This document shows positions 2,574 to 61,350 of a stretch of 64,000 nucleotides of DNA, one piece after another. The position numbers were made by a program, and so were the translations under genes. The stretch covers positions 11,126-75,125 of the forward strand of contig JBCCXA010000010.1 in assembly GCA_039192515.1 (NCBI GenBank), written 5' to 3'. Within the stretch, counting starts at the first letter, position 1. Each line of letters opens with the position of its first letter. This DNA is from Verrucomicrobiota bacterium. Its GTDB lineage: Bacteria > Verrucomicrobiota > Verrucomicrobiia > Methylacidiphilales > JBCCWR01. The notes under the pieces were generated by a model that was not told where the DNA came from, did no database searches, and worked only from the letters and a program-made list of their open reading frames with translations.

Positions 2574-4007
2574 TTAAATAGCTTTAATTGTTAATGTAAC
2601 TTCATTTTTTAAGTTTTTCACTGCATCGAATGCCCTTCGCGTTATCTCTTGAACACTCCCTTTTCCATTTATGGACTCCACTAAATGGAGCTTACGAAAG
2701 AAATCTACAACCGGTTTGGTCTGGTCGTTGTAGGTCTTGATACGAGCTAGGATTGTCTCTGGCTTGTCATCCAAGCGCTGGTAAAGCTTTCCCTGACATT
2801 CATCACAGACTCCTTCCTTTAGAGGAGGACTAAAACTCTTGTGATAAGTCTTTTGACAGACAGAGCATGTTAGGCGGCCAGATAGTCTTCTAATAATTTC
2901 CTCCTCACACACATCTATCATGAGCACACCGCTTAGTTCCCTACCTAAATTCTGCATCATAATGAGTAGAGACTGAGCTTGTGGCAAAGTTCTAGGATAA
3001 CCGTCTAAGATCACTCCATTAGCAGCATCCTTTCTTGAAAGACGCTCAGAGACCATCTCTTCAACGATAGCATCTGGTGCAAGCTGACCACGTTCTATAT
3101 AGCTTTTTGCCATCTTACCTAGATCAGTTTGATTCGAAAAATGCTCTCGAAATAAGGCACCTGTAGAAATGTGCAAAAGGCGTAGCTGTGTGCTCAAATG
3201 TTCAGCCTGGGTGCCCTTGCCTGACCCTGGCCCACCAATCAACACAATATCTTTAGCTCGAGAGTCTTTGCCGAAACTAGCCTGAAGATTTGAGCGTCCT
3301 GCTCTCTTCGCGATCATTGTTTTAATAACGAATTTATCCGCTGTTACTCGACCGCCGTTTAGATGTTGATTCAATGAATCTTTTACATTTTCTCTCACGG
3401 CATCTATTCCCGCGCCAGCATCCAAGACTAATAACTTTTCTTTATTCACGTATCTTTCTAAAAGCGAGGGAATTAGCCTATAGAAAGTCTTGAGACGCAA
3501 ACTCATAATTTCTGGGCTATCGTGTTCACGCTCAATCAATACTCCCGGACAGCTATCACAATGCTGTTTCTTTTTGGGTGGATAATAATCACGATGAAAA
3601 ACTCTATAACACTCTGAGCAAATCATTCGACCTACCACACGATCAATGGCATCGTCGTTCGCAATATCCAAATAAATTACTGCATCAAGCTTGGTTTGAG
3701 ATTGCATAAATAGCTCACTTAAAAACTCCTCTTGAAAGACATTGCCAGGCAATCCATCAAAAATAATCCCTTTGTCCCGAGGTATTTGATTGTACCAATC
3801 TAACATCATAGCTTGTACAACTTCATCAGGAACAAGCTCCCCATTGTCCATGTAGCCTTTGGCTAACTGTCCGAGCTCAGTTTGCCTTGCTAAGTTATCT
3901 CGAAACCAGTCTCCCGGCGAAGCATGAACCATGTCTTGACCCTCTGACAGCAACTCTGTCTGGGTGCTTTTTCCTGCGCCTGGTGGACCTAGGATTGCAA
4001 CTTTCAC
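2574..4007 (-). CDS. adk: Tandem (double-domain) adenylate kinase
   Basis: 477 aa with two complete Adk units. Unit 1 has GPPGAGKSTQ and lid CSECYRVFH..CDSCPG. Unit 2 has GGPGSGKGTQ, DGYPRT and lid CSVCQKTYH..CDECQG. Confidence 0.85.
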   Translation of the reverse strand: MKVAILGPPGAGKSTQTELLSEGQDMVHASPGDWFRDNLARQTELGQLAKGYMDNGELVPDEVVQAMMLDWYNQIPRDKGIIFDGLPGNVFQEEFLSELFMQSQTKLDAVIYLDIANDDAIDRVVGRMICSECYRVFHRDYYPPKKKQHCDSCPGVLIEREHDSPEIMSLRLKTFYRLIPSLLERYVNKEKLLVLDAGAGIDAVRENVKDSLNQHLNGGRVTADKFVIKTMIAKRAGRSNLQASFGKDSRAKDIVLIGGPGSGKGTQAEHLSTQLRLLHISTGALFREHFSNQTDLGKMAKSYIERGQLAPDAIVEEMVSERLSRKDAANGVILDGYPRTLPQAQSLLIMMQNLGRELSGVLMIDVCEEEIIRRLSGRLTCSVCQKTYHKSFSPPLKEGVCDECQGKLYQRLDDKPETILARIKTYNDQTKPVVDFFRKLHLVESINGKGSVQEITRRAFDAVKNLKNEVTLTIKAI

Positions 4008-50506: not shown

Positions 50507-51058
50507 TCAGGCGCTCATTTCAGCATGAGAAAGCTCAAGCTCCTTGCTAATAGTAAATTTGATAATAGTCCCCTGGCCTACCTTGCTCTGAGCAACCCAT
50601 ACTCTACCTTGGTGCTGTTTTACCAGCGTCTCAACAATCGCCAAACCCGCACCAGAACCTTTTATTTTGTTATTATTATGAGCCTTTTTGAATAGAGCAA
50701 AGACCTTTTGCTGCATCTCAGGCTCTATACCTATACCATTATCTATCACAGAAAAGAGATAATATTTTAAATCATCTTCATATTTAATAAGAATTTGAGG
50801 CCTATCTTTATCACAATACTTAATAGCATTCGCTATGAGGTTTTGAAACAAGATGAGAATAGAAGTCTCATGACATGTGATATGAGGTATTTCCTGCACC
50901 TCAATCACGGCACCAGAGTCTTTGATTTGCTTTTCTAATAGTGTTTTAGCTTCGGCAATAAGTCCTGAAAGATCGCAATTGGAAAAGACAATATCCCTAC
51001 GAGCTCTTCGAGATAGGGTGAGAAGATATATACGCACCGAAAGATTTCCAGGACGCAT
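50507..51058 (-). pseudogene. C-terminal fragment of a sensor histidine kinase (end of HisKA helix 2 + HATPase_c; no phospho-acceptor His)
   Basis: N-box FQNLIANAIKYC, G1 VIDNGIGI and G2 GSGAGLAIV. The frame is closed by TAG immediately upstream of the first Met, and no H-box is present. Confidence 0.75.
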
Positions 51059-51066
51059 CTACTTTT

Positions 51067-51630
51067 TTGCGAACTTTAACTACCTCCGAGCAAAAGAAAA
51101 AAATAGAACAGGAGGTGGATGAACTAATCCAAGAATCATCCAAGCCAGCGGAAGCCGCCAATACTAAAAGAACTGATCTCAAGAGAGATATCTATCTAGC
51201 TGAAGACTTAGCGATGCGAGAGATTGAACAAGAATTTGAAGTTAAAACGAATAGACAGGTTGCGTTCGGCTCCATGGATGCAGGTATCGACGGCATGTTT
51301 GCCAAGAACGGAAAAGGTTATGGAATCGAAGTGAAATTTGTCTGTAATACCCTCTCCAGAAATGTTATCAATCAGGCTGCAGGAATAGGAAATCAGCTAT
51401 TTGAAAGGTATGGATGGAAGAACTTTGATATGATTATCGCAGTTGTCCTCGACAATCAGAATCCAGTAGAGGTCCAAAAGCAGAGGAACCAAATACAGGA
51501 ACTAGTTAATGAAAAAGGTGATGGCTATCATTGTCGAGTTTACGAGTATGGCGAGCTTCTCAAAAAATGCGGCATCGATAAAAATGGATATAGATCTTTC
51601 AAAGTCTATAGAAGAATTAGAAGGAGATGA
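51067..51630 (+). CDS. Hypothetical protein with PD-(D/E)xK (Mrr-like) nuclease-type motif; possible orphan toxin domain
   Basis: REIEQEFE..SMDAGIDGMF-x9-YGIEVKF fits E..D..(E)xK. The start is uncertain (TTG 51067, GTG 51115 or ATG 51213). The 3' end overlaps the next ORF by 47 nt. Confidence 0.45.
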   Translation: MRTLTTSEQKKKIEQEVDELIQESSKPAEAANTKRTDLKRDIYLAEDLAMREIEQEFEVKTNRQVAFGSMDAGIDGMFAKNGKGYGIEVKFVCNTLSRNVINQAAGIGNQLFERYGWKNFDMIIAVVLDNQNPVEVQKQRNQIQELVNEKGDGYHCRVYEYGELLKKCGIDKNGYRSFKVYRRIRRR

Positions 51631-52096
51631 TTGGGGTCCACCTGATTTTGATTCTCATGTTGTTAGCACGTGCCATGAGTTACGTAAAAAGCCAATCAAA
51701 GATTTTGAGATAGAAGAACTGCGATTCATGATATTACAGAACGTAGGATCTGAATATTTAGCTCCATTAGCTTGCGTAGACCACGACCCTATAGACCAGT
51801 GGGCACCCGTGCATGATTATTTAGTCTACTATAGCTTATGCCTACACATCGGACCAGAGAACGAAGAAGGAGCAGATTTGTTTTATGTAGATATTGCGAC
51901 TCCACAGGCCATAAAACACTTTCAGTTGGGCAAAACCGTTTCGGATAAAAGCATTATTTTGAATCCCTATTCATGGCCGGAGGTATTAACCAGAGTAAAG
52001 AGAATGATTAATCATGTTTCGGGCGTGTCCTGGCAGCAAGTGGCAGAGGAATTAGACAAAAGTTTTAGTTGGGAATTTAGTGGTTATCCGTCATAA
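51584..52096 (+). CDS. Chimeric immunity protein: CdiI-like N-terminal half fused to an Imm8-like domain
   Basis: IEELEGDDWGPPDFDSHVVSTCHELRKKPIKDFEIEELRFMILQNVGSEYLAPLA matches my recollection of the CDI-immunity family. LHIGPENEEGADLFYVDIATP..WQQVAEELDKSFSWEFSGY matches the Imm8 pattern. ATG 51584 is chosen over 51509. Confidence 0.6.
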   Translation: MDIDLSKSIEELEGDDWGPPDFDSHVVSTCHELRKKPIKDFEIEELRFMILQNVGSEYLAPLACVDHDPIDQWAPVHDYLVYYSLCLHIGPENEEGADLFYVDIATPQAIKHFQLGKTVSDKSIILNPYSWPEVLTRVKRMINHVSGVSWQQVAEELDKSFSWEFSGYPS

Positions 52097-52101
52097 AGAT
52101 A

Positions 52102-52168
52102 CAGAACAAGCCAGTTGAGCTAATCTGCAAAACGCGTTGCGTTTTTTGATTAGCTTTTAGATCGCCTC
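52102..52168 (+). repeat. attC-like site 1 (degenerate R')
   Basis: R'' CAGAAC is at 52103-52108. Arms are GAGCTAATC / GATTAGCT with an inner hairpin AAAACGC-gtt-GCGTTTT. ATC (52162-52164) sits where GTT is expected, and the site may double as a terminator. Confidence 0.55.
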
Positions 52169-52219
52169 CTACCCTATAATATTTAAAACACCGTGAGCAG
52201 TTAGCTCACTTCTAACGAT

Positions 52220-52555
52220 ATGAATACAGAAGAGGAAGATCAGTCAGCACATGTAGCCGGCTTCATCACGTTTTCCGGATCAATTCCAGAATTGAGAGCG
52301 ATGATCCGTGATGCTGGTCTCACACCTTCGAAGGCAGATTCGCACCATATTCACATTGAAGAGTTTTCTCACGTCATGCTGAGAGAGTACTCGAAGTTTG
52401 AGTATATGATCGAAGCAGATGCAGATACACCAGATGAGATGGTTGAAGATATGAAGAGATTCTCTTCAGCGCTATCTGCTGAAAGAATTGGATACAACTA
52501 TGAAATCTATGATTCTTCAAATGAGCTAGTTTGCCAGAAGGAGGAGAAGTTTTGA
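52220..52555 (+). CDS. Cassette ORF, hypothetical acidic protein
   Basis: 111-aa ORF bounded by attC-like sites 1 and 2. No family was recognised. Confidence 0.55.
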   Translation: MNTEEEDQSAHVAGFITFSGSIPELRAMIRDAGLTPSKADSHHIHIEEFSHVMLREYSKFEYMIEADADTPDEMVEDMKRFSSALSAERIGYNYEIYDSSNELVCQKEEKF

Positions 52556-52556
52556 A

Positions 52557-52631
52557 TCATATCAAGGCAGAGCTCACAATGGCTACTCATCGCTTCGCTC
52601 TTCGCAGCCACGTGAGTCTTTGACGTTAACC
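52557..52631 (+). repeat. attC site 2
   Basis: The R''-like box is CATATCAAGGCAG (ATC for AAC). Arms are CTCAC..TGGCT / AGCCA..GTGAG. R' GTTAACC is at 52625-52631. Confidence 0.65.
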
Positions 52632-52649
52632 ATACGAGAAAGTACGCGC

Positions 52650-53408
52650 ATGGACGAAATTGAAAAAATTATAAGTCGATATAATGAAGAATATGTAGGC
52701 AAGAGCCTAGAATCGTTAGATGATATAAATAGGTTCACTGGTACTTTCGTAAAGGATGTAGCAGAGATTTATGATTGCATCACGAGAATGCGAAACATCG
52801 ATCGCAACCCAACTGGATTCAATCTAGACGATGCTCCTATTTTGGGGCTGTTAACCAGAATATGGAAACTACTCAAAGAAATCGTTATCTACTACGAAAA
52901 AGATAACGCTGAAATCATAAGTATATTAGAAAGACCACTGATAGAAGCGGCAGTTACGGCTGAATATTTACTAATGAGCGATTCTGCTGTTATTAAAGAC
53001 TATAGAAAATGCTCATATAAAGATCGATTAAGAATACTCCGAGAATTAAAAGAAGGTTCTAGGTTTTTCGAAACAAAGGCCGGAAAACGGTTGCTCAAAT
53101 CAGTTCAAGAGAAAATGGATTTAGAAGGTTTCTCTGAAGACGACTTCAAGAAACAAAAGAAAAATCGATGGAAGCTTCAAGGAAAAACTTTCTTCGACAT
53201 ATTCGGAGAGGTTACAGACGAAGACCTTTACAAGTACACTTATGGCATGATGTCTGAGTCTATTCATGGATCTTGGAACGAATCTATGGATTGGTGCCTC
53301 CAAAAAAACGAAGATTCAACATTCACAGTTTATCCGTTCTATCATGGAGCTGATGTTAGATATATATGCCCAACACTAAAGTTTTGCAATGAGTCATACA
53401 GACTTTGA
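52650..53408 (+). pseudogene. Cassette gene (possibly DUF5677-like) truncated by an in-frame TGA
   Basis: ATG 52650 lies 25 nt after R' GTT. After TGA (53406-53408) the same frame stays open for 38 more codons (LKRIDCEDENMVNVLNWIERVNTRIFMIFDQKYDGPNG) and ends at TAA 53523-53525 inside the R'' box of attC 3. Confidence 0.6.
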
Positions 53409-53519
53409 CTAAAACGAATTGATTGCGAGGATGAGAACATGGTCAATGTCCTCAATTGGATTGAAAGAGTTAATACGAGAATATTTATGATTTTTGACCA
53501 AAAATACGATGGGCCAAAT

Positions 53520-53597
53520 GGCTAACAAAGCCAGCCAGAGGGACCAAAAAACCGCCGCGTCGCTCTGGTTTTTCGGCCCCTGCTGGCAGCGTTCGGG
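53520..53597 (+). repeat. attC site 3
   Basis: R'' GCTAAC is at 53521-53526. Arms are GCCAGCcAGaGGGaCCaAAAAACC / GGTTTTTcGGCCCCTGCTGGC. R' GTTCGGG is at 53591-53597. Confidence 0.8.
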
Positions 53598-53605
53598 GAT
53601 AAAAT

Positions 53606-54028
53606 ATGAAAGCTGATCAGCGCATATTTGGTGAAATCTATGATGAAAGCAAATCTCATCGTATAACATTAGTATATGATGAAACATCACGTGGCGGGTA
53701 TGATTTCCTTAGGATAGACTGGCATACCCTAAGAGACAATGAATGGCGTATTCATCATACATTATCGCAGGATGCCTTCTCAAAGAATTCCAATGAACAA
53801 ATATGGGTTAGTGACATTCATAGTTTTGATCCTGAGACCGCTAACTGTATTCTGAAAATTGCAGAGGGAGAAAAACAATTAGATGTAGGACATATTTCGT
53901 ATATCTATTCTTGGAGAATTTGGGATATTAAAGATAACAAAGAAGTAAAGCTAATTAAGGTGTGCGAGAACATATGGGAGGGACCCATACTATTAGAAAA
54001 AGTAGAGCACACCGAACATGCCAGTTGA
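53606..54028 (+). CDS. Cassette ORF, hypothetical protein
   Basis: 140 aa with ATG 15 nt after R' GTT and the stop inside the next attC. No family was recognised. Confidence 0.6.
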   Translation: MKADQRIFGEIYDESKSHRITLVYDETSRGGYDFLRIDWHTLRDNEWRIHHTLSQDAFSKNSNEQIWVSDIHSFDPETANCILKIAEGEKQLDVGHISYIYSWRIWDIKDNKEVKLIKVCENIWEGPILLEKVEHTEHAS

Positions 54029-54135
54029 CAAAATGGCTCATACTCCGCGCTGTGATTTATCAGTATGAAAGATGAACTTCAACCCGTGAGATTTATCTGA
54101 TATTATCAGAGCCATTTCTCACTTTTACGTTCGGT
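54012..54135 (+). repeat. attC site 4 (long, ~124 bp)
   Basis: R'' CCGAAC is at 54012-54017. Arms are GTtGAcAAAATGGCTC (54024-54039) / GAGCCATTTCTCAC (54109-54122). R' GTTCGGT is at 54129-54135. Confidence 0.8.
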
Positions 54136-54151
54136 AGAAGAATAGAAAATT

Positions 54152-54892
54152 ATGAAAATTAAACTCGCAGCAGTCGGCATGTTTTTTTTGTCGTTATCGT
54201 GTTTTGCTCAAAGTGAGGCTATCAAGACAGAGGACGCGGACGCGAAAATTATTGCGGAAGTGCTCGGACAGAAGATCACCGCTGCCGAAAAGGACAATCT
54301 CCAGGGGTTGATCTTTGGAGCTCTATTACAGGAGTTTGCGAAGGAAAATAAGATCGAGCCCACAGAGGCGGAACTGGACGCCTTCATCGTGCAGACCCAG
54401 AAGCAAGAGAAGCGAAATCAAGTAGAATTCGAAGCAGATCGGGAAAGACTGCGGCGAGAGCTGAGGTCTACCGACCTCTCGGATGAAGAGCGGGAGGATA
54501 AGGAATCTCAACTCCAGACGGTTGAGAGCATTCTGAAGGCCAATCGCGAGACAAAAAGAATGACGAAAGGGATGGAAGCAGAGATGCACTCCATGATGTG
54601 CCAAATGGCGCAACAGTTTGTCAACTCGTGGAAGATCAACAAGGCCCTATACGAAGAATACGGAGGTCGAATCATCTTTCAGCAGGCTGGAGTTGAGCCA
54701 CTGGATGCATATCGGGATTTTCTGAGGAAGAAGGAGGAGCAGGGAGCATTTCAGATCCTCGATGAGAGCCACAGGGCACAGTTCTGGAATTACTTTACGA
54801 ATGACAACATGCATACTTTCTACGACAAAAACGACGGAGCGAAATTTATACATACCCCTTGGTGGATGGTGGACAAATCACCAGAAGAATAA
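54152..54892 (+). CDS. Cassette ORF, secreted coiled-coil-rich protein
   Basis: Signal peptide MKIKLAAVGMFFLSLSCFAQSEA. Codon usage is visibly more G+C-rich than in neighbouring cassettes. Confidence 0.6.
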   Translation: MKIKLAAVGMFFLSLSCFAQSEAIKTEDADAKIIAEVLGQKITAAEKDNLQGLIFGALLQEFAKENKIEPTEAELDAFIVQTQKQEKRNQVEFEADRERLRRELRSTDLSDEEREDKESQLQTVESILKANRETKRMTKGMEAEMHSMMCQMAQQFVNSWKINKALYEEYGGRIIFQQAGVEPLDAYRDFLRKKEEQGAFQILDESHRAQFWNYFTNDNMHTFYDKNDGAKFIHTPWWMVDKSPEE

Positions 54893-54896
54893 AATC

Positions 54897-54952
54897 ACCG
54901 AACAAGACAGTGGTGGCAACGGCTAAGGCCGTGCCACACTTCGAAGTTCGCT
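54897..54952 (+). repeat. attC site 5 (short family)
   Basis: R'' CCGAAC ends at 54903. Arms are GTGgTGGCAaCGGC (54910-54923) / GCCGTGCCACAC (54928-54939) with two bulged bases. R' GTTCGCT is at 54946-54952. Confidence 0.85.
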
Positions 54953-54958
54953 AATAAA

Positions 54959-55330
54959 ATGGCCCTGATCTTTAAATTGGAATGCGATAAGTGTGATTTC
55001 ACCGTAGGTCCTACTGGTGGAGGACACCTTTACGTTACTCTAGATGATGGAAGCCGTAAGCCTTTACCTCATCCGGCTGAATTTTCGACAGCATTAGATG
55101 CAACTGGTAAAGAGTTACCAGAGTTACAGAAGGAAAAGCGAATTGGCAGTGAACTCCAGTATCTTTGTTTAGCATGTGGCCATGATTTATATCTCGATCC
55201 GAGCAAAGATGTTTTAGTTTGTCCTGTTTGTACGTCTGATAACCTCATCGACATGCAGAAAGTTAAAAAGAAAGCCTGCCCAAAATGTAAGGAAGGCCAT
55301 CTAAGGCAAGAACACATAGGTATTTCATGA
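54959..55330 (+). CDS. Cassette ORF, double zinc-ribbon protein
   Basis: 123 aa with four CxxC pairs: CDKC, CLAC, CPVC and CPKC. Confidence 0.6.
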   Translation: MALIFKLECDKCDFTVGPTGGGHLYVTLDDGSRKPLPHPAEFSTALDATGKELPELQKEKRIGSELQYLCLACGHDLYLDPSKDVLVCPVCTSDNLIDMQKVKKKACPKCKEGHLRQEHIGIS

Positions 55331-55340
55331 ATGTAATAAA

Positions 55341-55406
55341 AGCGAACAATCCGATACATCGAATTCACTCCCTGCGGTCGTTCTTGGCTGATCGGTGACG
55401 TTAGTC
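55341..55406 (+). repeat. attC site 6
   Basis: R'' GCGAAC is at 55342-55347 and R' GTTAGTC at 55400-55406. The 27-nt core AATTCACTCCCTGCGGTCGTTCTTGGC (55362-55388) is identical to that of site 10. Confidence 0.8.
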
Positions 55407-55413
55407 AGAATAA

Positions 55414-55938
55414 ATGAAATCAATCATACCATCCAAGGAAGAGTGTTTCTACATCCTCGAAATGTTGGAGTCCTCACTGATTGATTTCAGCTACACTCAT
55501 CCTTGGGCTGACCGAATAATCGGATTGATTGACATACCCCCATCTTGGCTCTGCGACGTCTCTACAAAAAAATACACTGGAGACCAAAAGAAAGCATTTA
55601 GGGAATATGTCTTCAGTGAGCCATTTGAAGAAACACCAGTTGATATTGATAAATTCCACGTCGGGTGTCTTTGGATTAGATACGAAAGAAGAGAATTGTC
55701 TTGGGCTTCCTTCCTTCAACTGTCAGGCGAGTATCTCGACGCTGCGGGGGGAGACTGGGATTGCGAAACCCCATACCACTACCTCAATACTATTGAAGAT
55801 GCCTATTTCAGCTACGAATCCGAGGAGCGCACAAAGGCATTATATCTTAAAGATCATGATGTGTTGCCATGGGCGAATCTAGCAAAACAGAAACTCGAAC
55901 CTTTTTTAGAAACACGAATGACTAACAAGGCAGGATAG
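55414..55938 (+). CDS. Cassette ORF, hypothetical protein
   Basis: 174 aa with ATG 14 nt after GTT and the stop inside attC 7. No family was recognised. Confidence 0.6.
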   Translation: MKSIIPSKEECFYILEMLESSLIDFSYTHPWADRIIGLIDIPPSWLCDVSTKKYTGDQKKAFREYVFSEPFEETPVDIDKFHVGCLWIRYERRELSWASFLQLSGEYLDAAGGDWDCETPYHYLNTIEDAYFSYESEERTKALYLKDHDVLPWANLAKQKLEPFLETRMTNKAG

Positions 55939-55974
55939 GCAACGCCTTTGGCGCGCCTACCTTTGACGTTCGGG
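55920..55974 (+). repeat. attC site 7 (short family)
   Basis: R'' ACTAAC is at 55921-55926. Arms are GGaTAGGCaaCGC / GCGCGCCTACC. R' GTTCGGG is at 55968-55974. Confidence 0.8.
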
Positions 55975-55992
55975 CAATAGAATATTTCAAGA

Positions 55993-56361
55993 ATGAATCC
56001 TGATTTAAATTTCTTTTTTATGCTATTGATTAGTTCGGTATTCATTTTCTTCAGTTACAGAATTATCAAAAGGCACATGCTCAATATTGAGCTAGATAAA
56101 CATCTAAATGATAAAAATTATGTAGTTCATGAGATTACTTCTTATGTGTGTCTGAGAGACGAAGATGTCCCAAAAAGTTTATTAGATTTTTACTATTCTC
56201 AGTATCCCAGAATTATGAGATGGCACAGCCAGTGGCACATGATATACAGAGTAACGATATTAGATAGTAATTCGTCACCAGAATATAGGTGGTATTATCT
56301 TGATTCTAGAGCTTCAAAGCATAATCGTATTAAAGAATTAAAACCCGAACCTGGCAGTTGA
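55993..56361 (+). CDS. Cassette ORF, N-terminally membrane-anchored hypothetical protein
   Basis: 122 aa with the TM helix FFFMLLISSVFIFFSY. The stop lies inside attC 8. Confidence 0.55.
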   Translation: MNPDLNFFFMLLISSVFIFFSYRIIKRHMLNIELDKHLNDKNYVVHEITSYVCLRDEDVPKSLLDFYYSQYPRIMRWHSQWHMIYRVTILDSNSSPEYRWYYLDSRASKHNRIKELKPEPGS

Positions 56362-56411
56362 CCTAATCGCGTACCCTAGCGGGTTCGCTCCAGGTCACTT
56401 TTACGTTCGCT
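56344..56411 (+). repeat. attC site 8 (TACCCTAGCGGGTT-core family)
   Basis: R'' CCGAAC is at 56345-56350. Arms are GTtGACCT / AGGTCAC around the core TACCCTAGCGGGTTCGC. R' GTTCGCT is at 56405-56411. Confidence 0.8.
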
Positions 56412-56419
56412 GAATAAAT

Positions 56420-56797
56420 ATGAGTTTGATCTTAGATTGGCTGACCCTGAGCTCGAAAGTGATCGATTCGCTTGAGGAAGCGTTAAGAAGCTACGAACCT
56501 GATCAAGTCGAACTCAACGCTATCGCTTGGCAGATCGCGGAACTAAAGAAGGTAAATGAAAAAGTTAAAAAAGATGGATTCTTCGACTCAAGTTACACCG
56601 AAGCTTACCTGATCAAAGCTACATCTCGGGAACATCTGAATATTCAAACCGCGATATTAGAAGAATTAGGCTACCTATTCGATATAGCTCAAAGAGCTGT
56701 TCGATTAGGCCCCTCGAAGGCAAATGACATTCTTAAGATTAAACAGAGCGAACAAGGCGGTGAGCTCAATTCCGAGAGGCTGCGCTCCTCGTCTTGA
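56420..56797 (+). CDS. Cassette ORF, hypothetical helical protein
   Basis: 125 aa. The C-terminal 16 residues (EQGGELNSERLRSSS) are encoded by attC 9. Confidence 0.55.
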   Translation: MSLILDWLTLSSKVIDSLEEALRSYEPDQVELNAIAWQIAELKKVNEKVKKDGFFDSSYTEAYLIKATSREHLNIQTAILEELGYLFDIAQRAVRLGPSKANDILKIKQSEQGGELNSERLRSSS

Positions 56798-56815
56798 GCT
56801 ACCTTAGCGTTCGCT
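56747..56815 (+). repeat. attC site 9
   Basis: R'' GCGAAC is at 56748-56753. Arms are GGTgAGCTCAA / CTTGAGCTACC. R' GTTCGCT is at 56809-56815. Confidence 0.8.
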
Positions 56816-56818
56816 GAA

Positions 56819-57088
56819 ATGAAAAAACCTCCCACAGAGATAGATGGAGCTAAGGTTATTGAGTGGGCCTGGTCTGGAGATACCCCATTTGGCCTAGTGC
56901 CAGGAGCTGAACCCCCTGAGATATATGGATTGGCGATAGCTACCTACGACAACCAATCATACTACCGTTTTTCGTGCGATAGCGATTGGCATACTACTCA
57001 AGACAGTGTGTATGACTCTATTGAAAAAGCTAAGTCCTTGTTACCTAAGCAGTATTGCGATGTTGAAGCATTCTGGAGAAAATCATAA
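56819..57088 (+). CDS. Cassette ORF, small hypothetical protein
   Basis: 89 aa with ATG 10 nt after GTT. No family was recognised. Confidence 0.55.
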   Translation: MKKPPTEIDGAKVIEWAWSGDTPFGLVPGAEPPEIYGLAIATYDNQSYYRFSCDSDWHTTQDSVYDSIEKAKSLLPKQYCDVEAFWRKS

Positions 57089-57094
57089 AATATT

Positions 57095-57160
57095 AGCGAA
57101 CAAACACGTAGTGCCAATTCACTCCCTGCGGTCGTTCTTGGCACACGCTTAACGTTCGAC
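57095..57160 (+). repeat. attC site 10
   Basis: R'' GCGAAC is at 57096-57101. Arms are CGTaGTGCCAA / TTGGCACACG. The core (57116-57142) is identical to that of site 6. R' GTTCGAC is at 57154-57160. Confidence 0.85.
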
Positions 57161-57168
57161 AGAAATTT

Positions 57169-57687
57169 ATGAAAAAGAAACTAACTCTACTCGCACTTGC
57201 TCTCATACCTACTGCTTGCCTACTCGGAAAGACCATATCCCTCGATGGAGGGAGTGTAGCATTCGATGCACCGGATGAATTCACTCCAGTGCCTCAAGAG
57301 ATAATTGACATAAAGTATCCCTCTTCGAGAGCCCCGAAGTATGTGATTGGGAATAAGTCTGCAGCTACGACGATTGCCTATGATATTAAACCGCACTCAA
57401 TTCCTCAGCACAAAATTGAGGAAGCTAGAAAGTCATTCAGAGATTTGTTTCCTCGCATAATTCCAGGACTTCAGTGGAAAGAGAATAAAGTAATCACACT
57501 AGCAGGACAAAAGTGGGGATACATGGAAATGACATCGACTGCTATCGATACGAATATTTACAATATCATGCTCTTTACAGGATACAAAGGTAAGATGTTG
57601 GTCTTCAATTTCAACTCAATAAGAGAGGAGTTCCCGAAATACGAAAAAGCCCTCAGGGATTCTCTAAATTCGATTGAAATCAAATAG
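57169..57687 (+). CDS. Cassette ORF, secreted DcrB/DUF1795-like protein
   Basis: Signal peptide MKKKLTLLALALIPTACLLG. The family assignment is tentative, based on overall pattern only. Confidence 0.5.
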   Translation: MKKKLTLLALALIPTACLLGKTISLDGGSVAFDAPDEFTPVPQEIIDIKYPSSRAPKYVIGNKSAATTIAYDIKPHSIPQHKIEEARKSFRDLFPRIIPGLQWKENKVITLAGQKWGYMEMTSTAIDTNIYNIMLFTGYKGKMLVFNFNSIREEFPKYEKALRDSLNSIEIK

Positions 57688-57727
57688 TCGAACAAGACGT
57701 GTGAGGCAACGAGCGCAAGCGTTCGTC
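57688..57727 (+). repeat. attC site 11, internally deleted (3' arm missing)
   Basis: TCGAAC-AAGACGTGTGAGGCAACGAGC-GCAAGC-GTTCGTC keeps R'', the L''-like arm and R' (57721-57727), but no complementary 3' arm. It is only ~40 bp long. Confidence 0.5.
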
Positions 57728-57737
57728 GAAATATTAA

Positions 57738-58024
57738 ATGGCATTACAAGTTTATATTTCAGATCCTAAAGGTGGACTTGAGAAACATCAGATCTTACCT
57801 GAGCTATCTCATGAACAACATCAAGAGTTATTTTCAAACTCAAAGATGAGTATTCAGACATATCTTATTCCCACCAGGAGCTAGAAGCTCTTGTTTCAGA
57901 GATAGAACATGCAACTATGAATTTCGATATGACATCACCCGTAAAAGCGTTTTTGAGCCCTTTTCATTCATTATCTGTTATTGCTCTGACTAGGGAGAAG
58001 AATATAGTATTAATCTCAGATTAA
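57738..58024 (+). pseudogene. Cassette gene disrupted by a frameshift
   Basis: The frame from ATG 57738 gives 48 aa and ends at TAG 57882-57884. A second frame is open from 57815 to TAA 58022-58024 (..HQELEALVSEIEHATMNFDMTSPVKAFLSPFHSLSVIALTREKNIVLISD) and stops right before attC 12. One indel in the 57815-57884 overlap would join them. Confidence 0.6.
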
Positions 58025-58030
58025 ATTAGA

Positions 58031-58100
58031 GACGAACATGACAGTTTACCAAATACGTTTACCCTAGCGGGTTTCGCTTTTGGTGACTTCGACATTCTGC
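58031..58100 (+). repeat. attC site 12 (TACCCTAGCGGGTT-core family, mutated R')
   Basis: R'' ACGAAC is at 58032-58037. Arms are GTtTACCAAAtACG / CGCTTTTGGTGAC. ATT (58094-58096) replaces GTT. Confidence 0.65.
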
Positions 58101-58186
58101 AAAAAAGTCATCGACCATGAAAAATCTCGAATATTTAAACACAGAGAGTAAACAAACCTTGCGAGAAGGAATATCCGAGTTGCGGC

Positions 58187-58654
58187 ATGCCGAAGGCGCC
58201 GGAACTTCTGAATGACATGGATGCCCACGATGCAATCCATGTGCTTTTCGGCTGCCCAACGAACTTGGCAGGTGAGATCGTTGCACATATTTGGACTGCT
58301 TTCGGAACGACCGTATCAATAAAGGATATGCGCCGGGTCAACCAACACCGCGATCACAGGCAAGTATTGGAACAGATTGGGCATCGAAAATTATTTCTTA
58401 CATGGATTCGCAGTCTGCCGCGAATCCTCAAGGTGATCATCCGCACAAAGAAGATGAAGTCGCGTTGGCCTGTGGAAGAGGTTGATGCATTCGCTGACCG
58501 ACCTCTCGACGAATTGCGAAAGGAATTCTCGATCAGGCTCATTCCTTTCGATCCAGGGGAAGGCGGATCAGGAGGTGCAGCACTCCGAAACTTGAATCGT
58601 AAGACAGAACAAGGCAGTGGACTCAACGCGCTGCCGCGCGTGAGTCACTTTTAA
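58187..58654 (+). CDS. Cassette ORF, Coq4-like HDxxH protein (possibly frameshifted at the 5' end)
   Basis: DAHDAIHVLFGCPTNLAGEIVAHIW resembles the Coq4-family HDxxH-x(10-13)-E metal motif. A 32-codon frame from ATG 58117 overlaps out of frame. The C-terminal 16 residues are encoded by attC 13. Confidence 0.55.
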   Translation: MPKAPELLNDMDAHDAIHVLFGCPTNLAGEIVAHIWTAFGTTVSIKDMRRVNQHRDHRQVLEQIGHRKLFLTWIRSLPRILKVIIRTKKMKSRWPVEEVDAFADRPLDELRKEFSIRLIPFDPGEGGSGGAALRNLNRKTEQGSGLNALPRVSHF

Positions 58655-58662
58655 AGTTCGCC
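58604..58662 (+). repeat. attC site 13 (short family)
   Basis: R'' CAGAAC ends at 58610. Arms are GTGgACTCAaCGCG (58617-58630) / CGCGTGAGTCAC (58637-58648). R' GTTCGCC is at 58656-58662. Confidence 0.85.
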
Positions 58663-58667
58663 ACAAA

Positions 58668-59141
58668 ATGAACCATTTTCTACTACCTGTCCTTATCGTC
58701 ATATCGGTCTTCACTGGAGTTTGTTGTGCCGAAGGCTTAGCCCCAACAAATCTCACTGTGATAGTTTGTGATTCTACCAACAAGGTTTTGGATACTGTTA
58801 TTGTTCCGGACGACAAGAAGTCCAGATCAGTGAAATTTACTCTACCTGAGGGAACAGACGAGATTCGAGTTTTCGCACTCGGAAAGCGTCAGCACAAAGA
58901 CATGCAGACAGGCTACTATATCACCGGCCGACCTGATGATAAGAAGTGGATGGGGTTGGGCTACGTCGAGGCGCATGTCGAGAAAGGCGTTTTGACCGGA
59001 ATCGATGGTAACGGATTCGGACAGATCAAAATTGACAAGAATCTCAAGAAGCAAGTCTTGACCGACATCAAAGTTGGGACGACGGCCACGATCACAACCG
59101 TAATAATCAATGGCGAACAAGGCAGTGGTGGCAACGGCTAA
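58668..59141 (+). CDS. Cassette ORF, secreted hypothetical protein
   Basis: Signal peptide MNHFLLPVLIVISVFTGVCCAEG. The C-terminal EQGSGGNG is encoded by attC 14. Confidence 0.6.
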   Translation: MNHFLLPVLIVISVFTGVCCAEGLAPTNLTVIVCDSTNKVLDTVIVPDDKKSRSVKFTLPEGTDEIRVFALGKRQHKDMQTGYYITGRPDDKKWMGLGYVEAHVEKGVLTGIDGNGFGQIKIDKNLKKQVLTDIKVGTTATITTVIINGEQGSGGNG

Positions 59142-59167
59142 CGCCGCGCCACACTTTGACCTTAAAT
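59112..59167 (+). repeat. attC site 14 (short family, mutated R')
   Basis: R'' GCGAAC is at 59113-59118. The 5' arm GTGGTGGCAACGGC is identical to that of site 5. CTT (59161-59163) replaces GTT. Confidence 0.7.
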
Positions 59168-59597
59168 GTCCACTCAGGAATAGACTATAAGCCAAGATAA
59201 AGTAATAAAAATACTTGCAATAGCAAATATAATCTCTCTGCCTGTTGTTGTAGTTCTGAGTTTCTATCTTGATTCTTCTTTGCCGCCATTACTTGTAGAC
59301 TTCTTGGAGCAAGAAATGGAACGAGAAAATACCAATGTAGAATTGGTAGTTAGTTTTCTTACAATTCCGGTTTTATTAGTTCATCTTGTAGCACTATTCG
59401 GAGTTCTGCTATTCAAACAGTGAGCACGTATTCCTCTACTATTTACAAGCATACTATTTTATGTGCTTACTCCTTTTTTAGGGCCCTACGTGGATCACGG
59501 TATTTCGGCGACATTAGATAGTTTATCTTCGTTTATGCTGGGGGCGCTGTTAGTGCTATTGTTTTTCGGAGAATCAACATTTAACAAGTTAAGCTAG
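59166..59597 (+). pseudogene. Cassette gene for a ~4-TM membrane protein with two in-frame stop codons
   Basis: Hand translation gives one frame: MSTQE-TAG(59181)-TISQDKVIKILAIANIISLPVVVVLSFYL..LVALFGVLLFKQ-TGA(59421)-ARIPLLFTSILFYVLTPFLG..LGALLVLLFFGESTFNKLS-TAG(59595). It is absent from the ORF track because each piece is shorter than 60 aa from a start codon. Confidence 0.65.
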
Positions 59598-59637
59598 CAG
59601 GACGCCGCAAGCGGCGCCTCTGCTTAAAGCGTTATCT
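59579..59637 (+). repeat. attC site 15 (short family)
   Basis: R'' TTTAAC is at 59580-59585. Arms are TTAAGCtAGcAGGaCGCCGC (59589-59608) / GCGGCGCCTCTGCTTAA (59611-59627), which pair perfectly once the 3 bulged bases are removed. R' GTTATCT is at 59631-59637. Confidence 0.85.
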
Positions 59638-59642
59638 GATAA

Positions 59643-60098
59643 ATGTCATATATCCTGACAAAACAAAGAAATGCCAACGTCAAAGCTGCATTTGAAAAAT
59701 ATGCTTTGTATTTAAAAGAAAATGAAAGGTCATTCCCCAAGGGTGCATATGAACTTGCTACTAGTGATTGGTGGTTTAATTTTAATAATCACAGATGTCC
59801 ACATGACTCTTGGTTAGAGAAATTTGAGATTATGGAACACAGCCAAGGCGAGAGGAATGAGATAAGGTGGTCAAACATCGTTATTACTCTACTAGGCGCT
59901 TATCATGACTCTCTGCTTACCATTGAATATTCAGCAGTTTGCAATTATAGACTAGAGTGTGATTCAGGACATGGAGATTGGCTTTTTGACCAGTTTCTGT
60001 GTTCGGATGATGGCGATGTCATACATGAAATTGAGTGGTCTAGATCTCACTGGATAATTCACTGCAAAGATATTGAGTTTAGCTATAAGAAAATTTAA
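59643..60098 (+). CDS. Cassette ORF, hypothetical cytoplasmic protein (immunity-protein-like architecture)
   Basis: 151 aa with ATG 12 nt after GTT. The family is not securely recognised. Confidence 0.55.
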   Translation: MSYILTKQRNANVKAAFEKYALYLKENERSFPKGAYELATSDWWFNFNNHRCPHDSWLEKFEIMEHSQGERNEIRWSNIVITLLGAYHDSLLTIEYSAVCNYRLECDSGHGDWLFDQFLCSDDGDVIHEIEWSRSHWIIHCKDIEFSYKKI

Positions 60099-60167
60099 GA
60101 TAATAAGTCAGTTCACCAAATGCGCTTACCCTGGCGGGTTTCGCTTTTGGTGACTTCAAGCTTAGAG
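60098..60167 (+). repeat. attC site 16 (TACCCTGGCGGGTT-core family, both R boxes mutated)
   Basis: GATAAT (60099-60104) replaces xxGAAC. Arms are GTtCACCAAAtGCG / CGCTTTTGGTGAC. CTT (60161-60163) replaces GTT. Confidence 0.6.
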
Positions 60168-60179
60168 TAATATAAAAAC

Positions 60180-60596
60180 ATGAGTTATTTCATGACAGCG
60201 ATTGGTGAAAAACCAATTATTGAAGGAATTGAAACTAAATCAATTGACGATTCTCAGGATTATCTTAAAAACTTAAAGCCTTATTTTTCTGAAACGTATC
60301 AGGATGAAAGAGTATGGGTCTTAGAGTACTTCGATAAAGATTATAATGATTTTATTTCACTCTCTGAAAGCACATTTCATGAAACACAAGACTTTGAAGC
60401 AACACTTTTATATAAAACCGTAAAGTCTCTGGAACAGAATCAAAACTCTTTCCACATTTGGTGGGCTAGCAACAACTCTCACACCGATGTAGAAGAAGTC
60501 AGTACTTTTGAAGAAGCAATTGAACTAATCAAAGAGCAAATTAACAGAGCTGAAGAAATCGGTATAAGGGCAACTCTAACAAACGGATCAACCTAA
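60180..60596 (+). CDS. Cassette ORF, hypothetical acidic protein
   Basis: 138 aa and very AT-rich. The stop lies inside attC 17. Confidence 0.55.
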   Translation: MSYFMTAIGEKPIIEGIETKSIDDSQDYLKNLKPYFSETYQDERVWVLEYFDKDYNDFISLSESTFHETQDFEATLLYKTVKSLEQNQNSFHIWWASNNSHTDVEEVSTFEEAIELIKEQINRAEEIGIRATLTNGST

Positions 60597-60649
60597 TAGC
60601 ATCCATTCGCTACGCTCATTCCAGCTATAGGTTATCTAGGACGTTAGGT
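60573..60649 (+). repeat. attC site 17
   Basis: R'' CTCTAAC is at 60574-60580. Arms are GATcAACCTAaTAGC / GCTATAGGTTATC. R' GTTAGGT at 60643-60649 matches the canonical GTTRRRY. Confidence 0.85.
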
Positions 60650-60666
60650 CAAAAAAAGGAAAATAT

Positions 60667-60930
60667 ATGATTAAATTTAAAGACTTTGTTCCAAAAGAAG
60701 TAACTAAAGCTGGATTCTTTAGCTCAGCAAGATTGGAAGAATTAAATGATTCTTTAAAAAGAGCTAATATTTGGATTGAAAATCAAAACATAAACGTTCT
60801 TAACATAGAAACTGTTGTTTTACCAAATATTCATAGGTCATCAGAAGAAGGATCTACTGACACAGATATTACAACTTCTGGGGACATGTCATCAAATTGG
60901 CATCAATTTATTAGGGTTTGGTACAAGTAA
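60667..60930 (+). CDS. Cassette ORF, small hypothetical protein
   Basis: 87 aa with the RBS-like AAAGGAAAATATATG. No family was recognised. Confidence 0.55.
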   Translation: MIKFKDFVPKEVTKAGFFSSARLEELNDSLKRANIWIENQNINVLNIETVVLPNIHRSSEEGSTDTDITTSGDMSSNWHQFIRVWYK

Positions 60931-60942
60931 AGCACTAAAAAC

Positions 60943-61019
60943 GACCTAACAATTAGATCAACCTAATAGCTTCCACTCGCTGCGCTCGCTCCAGCTATAG
61001 GTTATCTAGGACGTTCTGT
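60943..61019 (+). repeat. attC site 18 (last in array; near-duplicate of site 17)
   Basis: R'' ACCTAAC is at 60944-60950. CAACCTAATAGC..CCAGCTATAGGTTATCTAGGAC is shared with site 17. R' GTTCTGT is at 61013-61019. Confidence 0.85.
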
Positions 61020-61119
61020 GAAAAAAGAATTACCAGATAGAGTTATTAGTCACCTTAACAGAGGCGATCCCGCCAAAGAAAAATCATCCCTTTCTTCTCA
61101 GATACTACTCATATGAAAA

Positions 61120-61350
61120 TTAACGGGACAGCAATGCTTCGCAAGTAACAGTAAATCCACGAACTCCCGTTTCCATATCTATGATAATCTTTAAGATGTA
61201 ATTAGCATCCGAAATAACTTTGTGGGTGTGAGCAACCCATTTAGCAGAATCATTCAGCCTATTAATGACCAGGTAGCTTGTAGCTGCTACGGCTAATAGG
61301 ATGGCCATCATGGCAGTATAACCGGTGACTATTTGGTGCTGTAATTTCAC
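61120..61350 (-). pseudogene. N-terminal fragment of a CHASE3-domain sensor protein
   Basis: KLQHQIVTGYTAMMAILLAVAATSYLVINRLNDSAKWVAHTHKVISDANYILKIIIDMETGVRGFTVT matches the start of CHASE3 (TM helix, W-V-x-H-T, ETGxRG[YF]). It then diverges (CEALLSR) and stops after 76 codons. Confidence 0.7.

Follow-up and report, generated by a model that had tools for sequence, protein, structure and literature searches.

The cassette array and its attC sites

The window analysed here is the whole of a 64,000-nucleotide stretch of the chromosome of an uncultured Verrucomicrobiota bacterium (contig JBCCXA010000010.1), in which positions 51059–61119 (+ strand) are occupied by an array of gene cassettes without an integrase, that is, a cluster of attC sites lacking integrase (CALIN), made up of 17 complete cassettes and two truncated end pieces, with all the open reading frames (ORFs) on the + strand. 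Eighteen attC sites, the number already given in the initial annotation of this DNA and reproduced here, are spread over 52101–61019, one of them 3' of each + strand ORF; the cassette units are 345–966 bp long, with one + strand ORF per unit, and the GC content is 41.2% in the array and 42.1% in the flank. We consider it very likely (with a probability of about 0.9) that the locus holds an integron attC array of 18 sites, in which every + strand cassette has one at its 3' end, and that this array lies as a CALIN between what look like the two ends of a disrupted kinase gene and is partly decayed.

The sites (the first one, and those labelled B to R after it) share a common plan, namely an R'' box (RYYYAAC), an unpaired spacer of 5–6 nt, an L'' arm with extra bases, a variable loop, L', a second spacer and an R' box (GTTRRRY). 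Seventeen of the 18 can be folded, the exception being site K (57687–57727, + strand, as all the sites), a 41-nt remnant in which R'', L'' and R' are present, the L' arm has been deleted, and the R boxes are still complementary to those of the neighbours at 6/6 positions. The foldable sites are 55–125 nt long; the length of attC sites is variable through their terminal structure, with 57–141 bp in the literature. Both the AAC and the GTT triplet are found in 13/18 sites, while the first site ends in GAT and altered triplets are present in B (ATC), L (ATT), N (CTT) and P (AAT and CTT). The unpaired spacer measures about 5–6 nt per arm (7 nt on the 3' arm of M) and is followed by a 3-bp helix, whose commonest form is AGT/ACT; in sites C and O the unpaired stretch is shorter, and pairing begins 3 nt from the R box.

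Bulge geometry and covariation of the arms

The initial annotation had rested on three hairpins, belonging to sites E, M and O, and the sequence from 54700 to 59800 was read directly to check them. All three lie where they had been placed: site E has the 5' arm GTGGTGGCAACGGC (54910–54923) and the 3' arm GCCGTGCCACAC (54928–54939), site M the arms GTGGACTCAACGCG (58617–58630) and CGCGTGAGTCAC (58637–58648), and site O the arms TTAAGCTAGCAGGACGCCGC (59589–59608) and GCGGCGCCTCTGCTTAA (59611–59627). In each of them, as had been proposed, the two arms become exact reverse complements of each other after 2–3 extra bases of the 5' arm are dropped, namely 54913 and 54919 in E, 58620 and 58626 in M, and 59595, 59598 and 59602 in O; the G and A bulges of E and M sit in GG and AA pairs, so that their position is ambiguous by one nucleotide. 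The arm sequences had also been called unrelated, which is right for site O and overstated for E and M, whose 5' arms are identical at 9/14 positions; all five differences are compensated by complementary changes in the 3' arm, a clean case of covariation. The loop of site O, implied to be of 2 nt, is really of 4 nt. When folded as single-stranded DNA, the bottom strands of E, M and O reach −15.9, −14.4 and −13.5 kcal/mol, with z-scores of −4.26, −3.05 and −2.93, respectively, against dinucleotide shuffles. In E and O every one of the proposed single-base bulges is present in the minimum-energy fold, and all lie on the arm across from the bottom-strand AAC; in M the T bulge alone is retained in that fold, and the C bulge and the outer 3-bp helix are seen in the centroid.

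When the arms of all the sites are aligned from the AAC and GTT triplets towards the loop, under the condition that the R boxes stay in register, placement of the extra bases on the '' arm outscores placement on the other arm in 17/17 foldable sites (sign test p = 1.5e-5, with the sites taken as independent), which bears out the assertion that the extra bases are always on the arm next to AAC. The first extra base lies 8–10 nt after AAC in all 17 (equivalent to attC positions 15–17), and the last one 15–17 nt after it. The second one is found at 15/16 nt (position 22/23) in seven two-bulge sites: B (52557–52631; R'' TCATATC, with ATC for AAC, and R' GTTAACC; extra G 52572 and extra A 52578/52579), in which the '' arm carries, in the minimum-energy fold of the bottom strand, a C and a T bulge with 6 bp between them; E (54897–54952; R'' ACCGAAC, R' GTTCGCT; extra G 54912/54913, extra A 54918/54919); G (55920–55974; extra A 55935 and 55941/55942); M (58604–58662; R'' ACAGAAC, R' GTTCGCC; extra G 58619/58620, extra A 58625/58626); N (59112–59167), with arms nearly identical to those of E and the R' box CTTAAAT, from which the crossover G has been lost; Q (60574–60649; extra C 60589, extra A 60595/60596); and R, the last site (60944–61019; extra C 60959, extra A 60965/60966; R' GTTCTGT). 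Sites C (53520–53597; extra C 53535/53536, extra A 53539 and 53543) and O (59579–59637; extra T 59595, C 59598 and A 59602) are of the three-bulge type, with the extra bases at 9/10 nt or 10 nt, then at 13 and then at 17 nt. In all the sites with a discrete second or third bulge (9/9) the distal extra base is a bottom-strand T.

The distal position takes other forms in the remaining sites. An internal loop, asymmetric through a surplus base on the '' arm, is found near that position in the first site (52101–52223; 123 nt; R'' ACAGAAC, R' GATATGA; extra T 52115/52116) and in sites F (55341–55406; extra A 55356), H (56344–56411; extra T 56358/56359, then the asymmetric loop), I (56747–56815; extra G 56762, then a 3 x 2 loop) and J (57095–57160; extra A 57110, then a 3 x 2 loop), and closer in, as a 2 x 1 loop at 54029–54030, in site D (54011–54135; extra T 54025/54026), which measures 125 nt and has a long variable terminal structure. 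Site F has the same geometry as J, with a stem weakened by two mismatches. Sites L (58031–58100; R' ATTCTGC, crossover G lost; 2 x 1 loop at 58046–58047, with one net extra T in the TTT of 58045–58047) and P (60098–60167; R'' AGATAAT and R' CTTAGAG, both triplets altered; extra T 60112/60113) have merely a 1 x 1 mismatch at the distal-bulge position. The first site was also considered as two, a decayed site plus a dubious short hairpin; this was ruled out by the pairing of its L'' arm, AGT[T]GAGCTAA, with the TTAGCTC-ACT that adjoins the R' box, and by the chain of R boxes, its R' complementing the R'' of site B at 6/6 positions.

The spacing of the bulges was compared, as the initial annotation had suggested, with that of characterised sites. 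Eight control attC sites (those of aadA1, blaIMP-1, aac(6')-IIa, dfrA14, blaVIM-1, aac(6')-Ib4, aph(3')-XV and catB2) were extracted from the resistance plasmids R100, pNY8709-IMP, pLGP4 and pFDL-VIM, and the same code placed their extra bases 9 and 16, or 9, 13 and 17 nt after AAC, on the same arm as in the array. By adding the 7 nt of the R box these values become 16, (20) and 23/24, and the extrahelical positions reported by Nivina et al. 2016 (PMC5027507) are G16/(N20)/T23–24; thus, the geometry is the same. The first extra base is a bottom-strand G in just three array sites, and likewise in three of the eight controls.

By manual count, the pure single-base bulges in the minimum-energy folds of the bottom strands of the 17 foldable sites number 20 on the '' arm, against 2 on the other one, both of the latter in site C. 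In Boltzmann samples of 16 sites (the first one being left out) the '' arm is dominant in 12, with shares of 98% in E, 68% (against 0.7%) in M and 61% (against 35%) in O; in O a slipped rival fold, with the R-box register broken, lies 1.1 kcal/mol above the canonical one. In 15/18 sites the bottom strand forms the more stable fold, and in 2 (G and remnant K) the top strand does, which fits the reported strand bias (PMC5027507). In the test by folding that had been proposed, the bulge claim holds up in E, M and O and in the greater part of the array, and site C is a genuine exception.

The covariation of the arms, on which the initial annotation had also insisted, is real. When full sites were given to MAFFT the 5' halves were aligned and the 3' halves were not, and for this reason a structure-anchored mini-alignment of 16 sites (the first site and remnant K being left out) was used, which spans the R box, 3 bp, the extra base and 6 bp. 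In it, pairing is found in 85.5% of the cells, against 28–45% when the partners are slid by 1–3 columns; cells changed on both sides number 60, against 22.5 in shuffles, and 0/500 shuffles reach 60. Each of the nine stem columns shows 2–4 pair types. The analysis supports the asymmetric-bulge reading and extends it from three sites to the whole array.

The structures might still have a different origin, being intrinsic terminators or repetitive extragenic palindrome (REP)-like elements that resemble attC by chance. The hairpins do lie at the 3' ends of genes, a few of them are followed by TTTT, as in CACTTTTAC, and one (58627–58642) was flagged as terminator-like. Terminators were rejected as the explanation on finding that terminator-like sites are not enriched (12, against 8.6 +/- 2.8 expected), and neither terminators nor REP-like palindromes would explain the AAC and GTT boxes, the one-sided bulges at fixed distances or the complementarity between successive R boxes described below. 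Moreover, just one similar hairpin, without bulges, is present in the window outside the array at the stricter threshold, and at a looser threshold they number 0–3 per locus in about 600 kb of unrelated loci. A chance resemblance of this kind is hardly credible.

Crossover signature, cassette order and content

In integrons, the next cassette supplies the six bases that follow the G|TT crossover, and it is with the R'' box of that cassette that they pair. In the array the six bases that follow the crossover in each R' box complement the R'' box of the following site at 99/102 positions, and 14/17 junctions are perfect, whereas the same comparison within one site gives 64/102 (permutation p < 1e-5, with 0 of 100,000 reaching the observed value). 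This offers independent evidence, read from the sequence, that the units were probably assembled by integrase-type recombination. Some junctions depart from the usual triplets. Cassette B has the left boundary G|ATATGA (52217–52223) and its own R'' TCATATC (52557–52563), with GAT/ATC in place of GTT/AAC; the two changes are about 340 bp apart and would pair in the excised circle. In sites L, N and P (58094, 59161 and 60161) the G just 5' of the crossover has been substituted (ATT, CTT and CTT), and TT is intact.

The features demonstrated in the sequence are the anatomy of the sites, the canonically spaced bulges on one arm, the crossover signature and the polarity; the polarity proposed earlier is also in agreement with the orientation of the + strand ORFs. 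How recombination took place at the array may be conceived by analogy with established attC biology. The bottom strand would fold, and the extra bases, being unpairable, would be extruded on the arm opposite the AAC that is cleaved; IntI would bind the folded bottom strand, the extruded bases fitting the integrase on that strand only, and cleavage would take place in the AAC of R' on the bottom strand only. Cassettes would, as a consequence, be inserted in one orientation.

The intact chain of R' and R'' boxes also shows that the order of the contig is right. The alternative, that the order of the cassettes is an artefact of assembly, in a chimeric contig joined across repeated attC sites, has to be weighed in view of the words of 19–27 nt that are shared by E/N and F/J, and of contigs of an independent assembly that end inside sites G (55957) and N (59131), relatives of which recur in the array. 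A wrong join would break the R'/R'' complementarity, which is kept at every junction including those beside repeated sites, and both junctions between the array and its flanks recur at 100% identity in the independent assembly of run SRR22824305. Such an artefact is, thus, very improbable. Evidently, the repetition of attC sequences causes assemblies of this locus from short reads to break up.

Identical words are shared by pairs of sites on different cassettes (27 nt in the loops of F/J, 24 nt in L/P, 19 nt in E/N and 26 nt in Q/R), from which it follows that the array holds several attC families, not one. The loop of site R (60974–60986) contains a 13-nt word, ACTCGCTGCGCTC, in common with the attC of the catB2 resistance cassette, a length that 4/300 shuffles reach, and the loop of site I (around 56780) has 11 nt in common with the same attC. 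A search of the window at the Rfam gathering thresholds gave a tRNA as the sole match, Rfam having no attC family, and exact-pattern scans of metagenomes with the stump that follows site R and with a loop motif common to H, L and P gave no matches.

Most of the cassette products have no Pfam match, the exceptions being one Imm8/CdiI_3 immunity protein and one DUF5677. The former belongs to the first unit (51067–52096), in which two overlapping ORFs encode a 187-aa protein without family match and the immunity-type protein, and which may be what remains of a toxin-immunity pair. After the last attC a 100-bp stump of a further cassette is left (61020–61119, + strand). Sigma-70 promoter-like sites are not enriched in the array.

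The array is partly decayed. The crossover G has been lost in L, N and P, P has AAT for AAC, the L' arm of K is missing, and F carries two stem mismatches. ORFs are broken in the cassettes K-to-L and N-to-O, and perhaps also in L-to-M (57738–58024, 59280–59597 and 58117–58215 being the regions of broken or frameshifted ORFs). The split ORFs consist of two short pieces in different frames, of 48 + 35 aa and 47 + 44 aa; in the third cassette the start may be frameshifted.

The missing integrase, the flanks and known systems

From the polarity of the sites the initial annotation had placed an integrase or attI to the left of the array, near 51 kb. Neither is found there or elsewhere in the 64 kb, and the left edge is a truncated histidine-kinase gene. 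No recombinase was detected in Pfam and NCBIfam scans of the flanking genes, of all the ORFs of 260–480 aa and of most cassette ORFs; the HxLRH motif was not found in the window, and tblastn with IntI1 over the 64 kb gave a best E-value of 4. Overall, the 51 kb to the left of the array and about 6 kb to its right are without integrase. The locus, therefore, lacks what defines a complete integron (intI with the IntI-specific insertion, and attI and Pc before the first cassette). According to Cury et al. 2016 (PMC4889954), a CALIN comprises two attC sites or more without an integron integrase within 4 kb, and here 18 attC sites are found with integrase absent within that distance.

Several observations weigh against the identification of the locus as an attC array or limit its strength. 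In the first place, no integrase was found, and as a result the activity of the array cannot be shown. The families E/N, Q/R, L/P and F/J imply that the 17 foldable sites are not 17 independent trials in the test of bulge side. The alignment used for covariation was derived from structure, which biases the percentage of paired cells towards the structure; no such bias affects the comparison with slid partners or the variety of pair types. With respect to folding, the Boltzmann samples of C and I mostly have more bulges on the other arm, and those of L and F are undecided; in site C the free-DNA minimum is a slipped register with a bulge on the other arm (−20.5 kcal/mol, against −18.3 kcal/mol for the canonical register of 6 bp/C/2 bp/A/3 bp/A); and site F (−4.4 kcal/mol, z = +1.2) folds no better than its shuffles. 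Finally, 5/18 sites have either a changed AAC or GTT (B, L, N and P) or a lost arm (K).

The absence of an integrase bears also on whether the array could be still alive, with an integrase supplied in trans by a complete integron elsewhere in the genome that excises and reshuffles the cassettes. This seems possible, although less probable than not, since the arguments go both ways: 13/18 sites retain AAC, GTT and a canonical fold, about half of the known CALINs are in genomes that encode IntI (PMC4889954), and the source contig is of 104.8 kb while the search for an integrase covered the 64 kb and about 4 kb to the right; conversely, none was found in that span, and the loss of three crossover Gs and of one arm, together with two or three cassettes with broken ORFs, suggests relaxed selection.

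The genes at the two edges of the array give some indication of where it came to lie. On the left, it abuts the C-terminal fragment of a histidine kinase (50507–51058, − strand), with HATPase_c only and the N-terminal part missing, which is annotated as 'MAG: ATP-binding protein [Verrucomicrobiota bacterium]'. On the right, it abuts the N-terminal fragment of a sensor kinase (61120–61350, − strand), which encompasses a transmembrane helix together with the initial 34 positions of CHASE3. The domains that they contain, together with their order and strand, make the flanks look like the opposite ends of a single CHASE3 histidine-kinase gene, the middle of which would have been replaced by the 10-kb array. 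A search for homologues of the CHASE3 fragment matched the fragment itself alone; for the C-terminal fragment, the identity of the relatives does not exceed 46% and most of them are partial, and no close full-length homologue was found. For the dehydrogenase that adjoins the array the nearest relatives are in Opitutales and Verrucomicrobiota metagenome-assembled genomes (67–69% identity), whose dehydrogenase loci are without attC array and without integrase. Exact protein look-ups led to contigs of the same sequencing run or to no match. Far from the array, at 2574–4007 (− strand), a 477-aa ORF has two separate regions that match the adenylate kinase domain, which suggests a tandem-domain adenylate kinase.

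A rather unlikely elaboration of this picture is that a circularly closed block of 17–18 cassettes travelled together and entered the CHASE3 histidine-kinase gene at a place that is not an att site. The last R' (GTTCTGT, 61013–61019) complements the first R'' (ACAGAAC, 52101–52107) at 6/6 positions, as would be expected of a circle that had been opened within the first cassette; the match has a chance of about 1 in 9, site M having the same R''; both ends of the array are inside cassette sequence, and the flanks look like halves of one host gene. If true, the locus would preserve the footprint of a cassette-block transfer without adjacent integrase.

The array, read as a partly decayed CALIN, leaves the understanding of integrons unchanged, the geometry of its sites being that of textbooks and clusters of attC sites lacking integrase being common. 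It does show that the diagnostic asymmetry of attC can be recovered by reading the raw sequence, and it documents a large integrase-free cassette array in Verrucomicrobiota, a phylum in which integrons are little described; Cury et al. 2016 (PMC4889954) reported integrons in Verrucomicrobia. Furthermore, its 17 sites of diverse sequence and one geometry, including crossover-G variants and a compensated GAT/ATC R box, could serve as natural test substrates, and the array as a whole could serve as a case study of how cassette arrays arise and decay.

Among known systems, CALINs (PMC4889954) share with the array the heterogeneity of the attC sites, cassettes mostly of unknown function and no recognisable intI pseudogene; they differ from it in the number of sites (18 here, against a reported mean of about 5), and in that here both ends are inside cassettes, with what look like fragments of a single host gene on either side of the array. 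Sedentary chromosomal integrons, such as the Vibrio superintegron, are likewise chromosomal, and the array resembles them in its numerous small cassettes, which are of unknown function and include one for an immunity-type protein, and in its host-like base composition, but it is without intI, attI and Pc, and contains several attC families instead of one homogeneous repeat. Insertion at secondary attG sites (bioRxiv 10.1101/2022.09.11.507474) also brings cassettes into an ordinary chromosomal gene, away from attI; however, it predicts junctions at the attC crossover, whereas those of the array are within cassettes and part of the host gene is missing.

Sites C (16/17, 20, 24) and O (17, 20, 24) are similar to the three-bulge attC sites (VCR2, attC-oxa2, catB2 and blaVIM-1, with 16/20/24; PMC5027507) in having three single extra bases on the same arm and a distal bottom-strand T, with the differences that the first bulge of O is displaced outward by one position, the spacing being 2 + 3 bp instead of 3 + 3, and that the canonical fold of C has a slipped competitor. 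The layout of sites B, E, G, M, N, Q and R is that of the class 1 two-bulge attC sites (aadA1/aadA7, dfrA14, aph(3')-XV). The arm sequences are unrelated, the setting is a Verrucomicrobiota chromosome with no integrase alongside, and the first bottom-strand extra base is mostly C, T or A in the array, not the usual G; the AAC of R'', the 5-nt spacer, the 3 bp, the extra nucleotide at 9, the 6 bp, the extra nucleotide at 16 and the distal bottom-strand T are common to both, and sites Q and R match the class 1 sites down to G16/T23, as in attC-aadA1.

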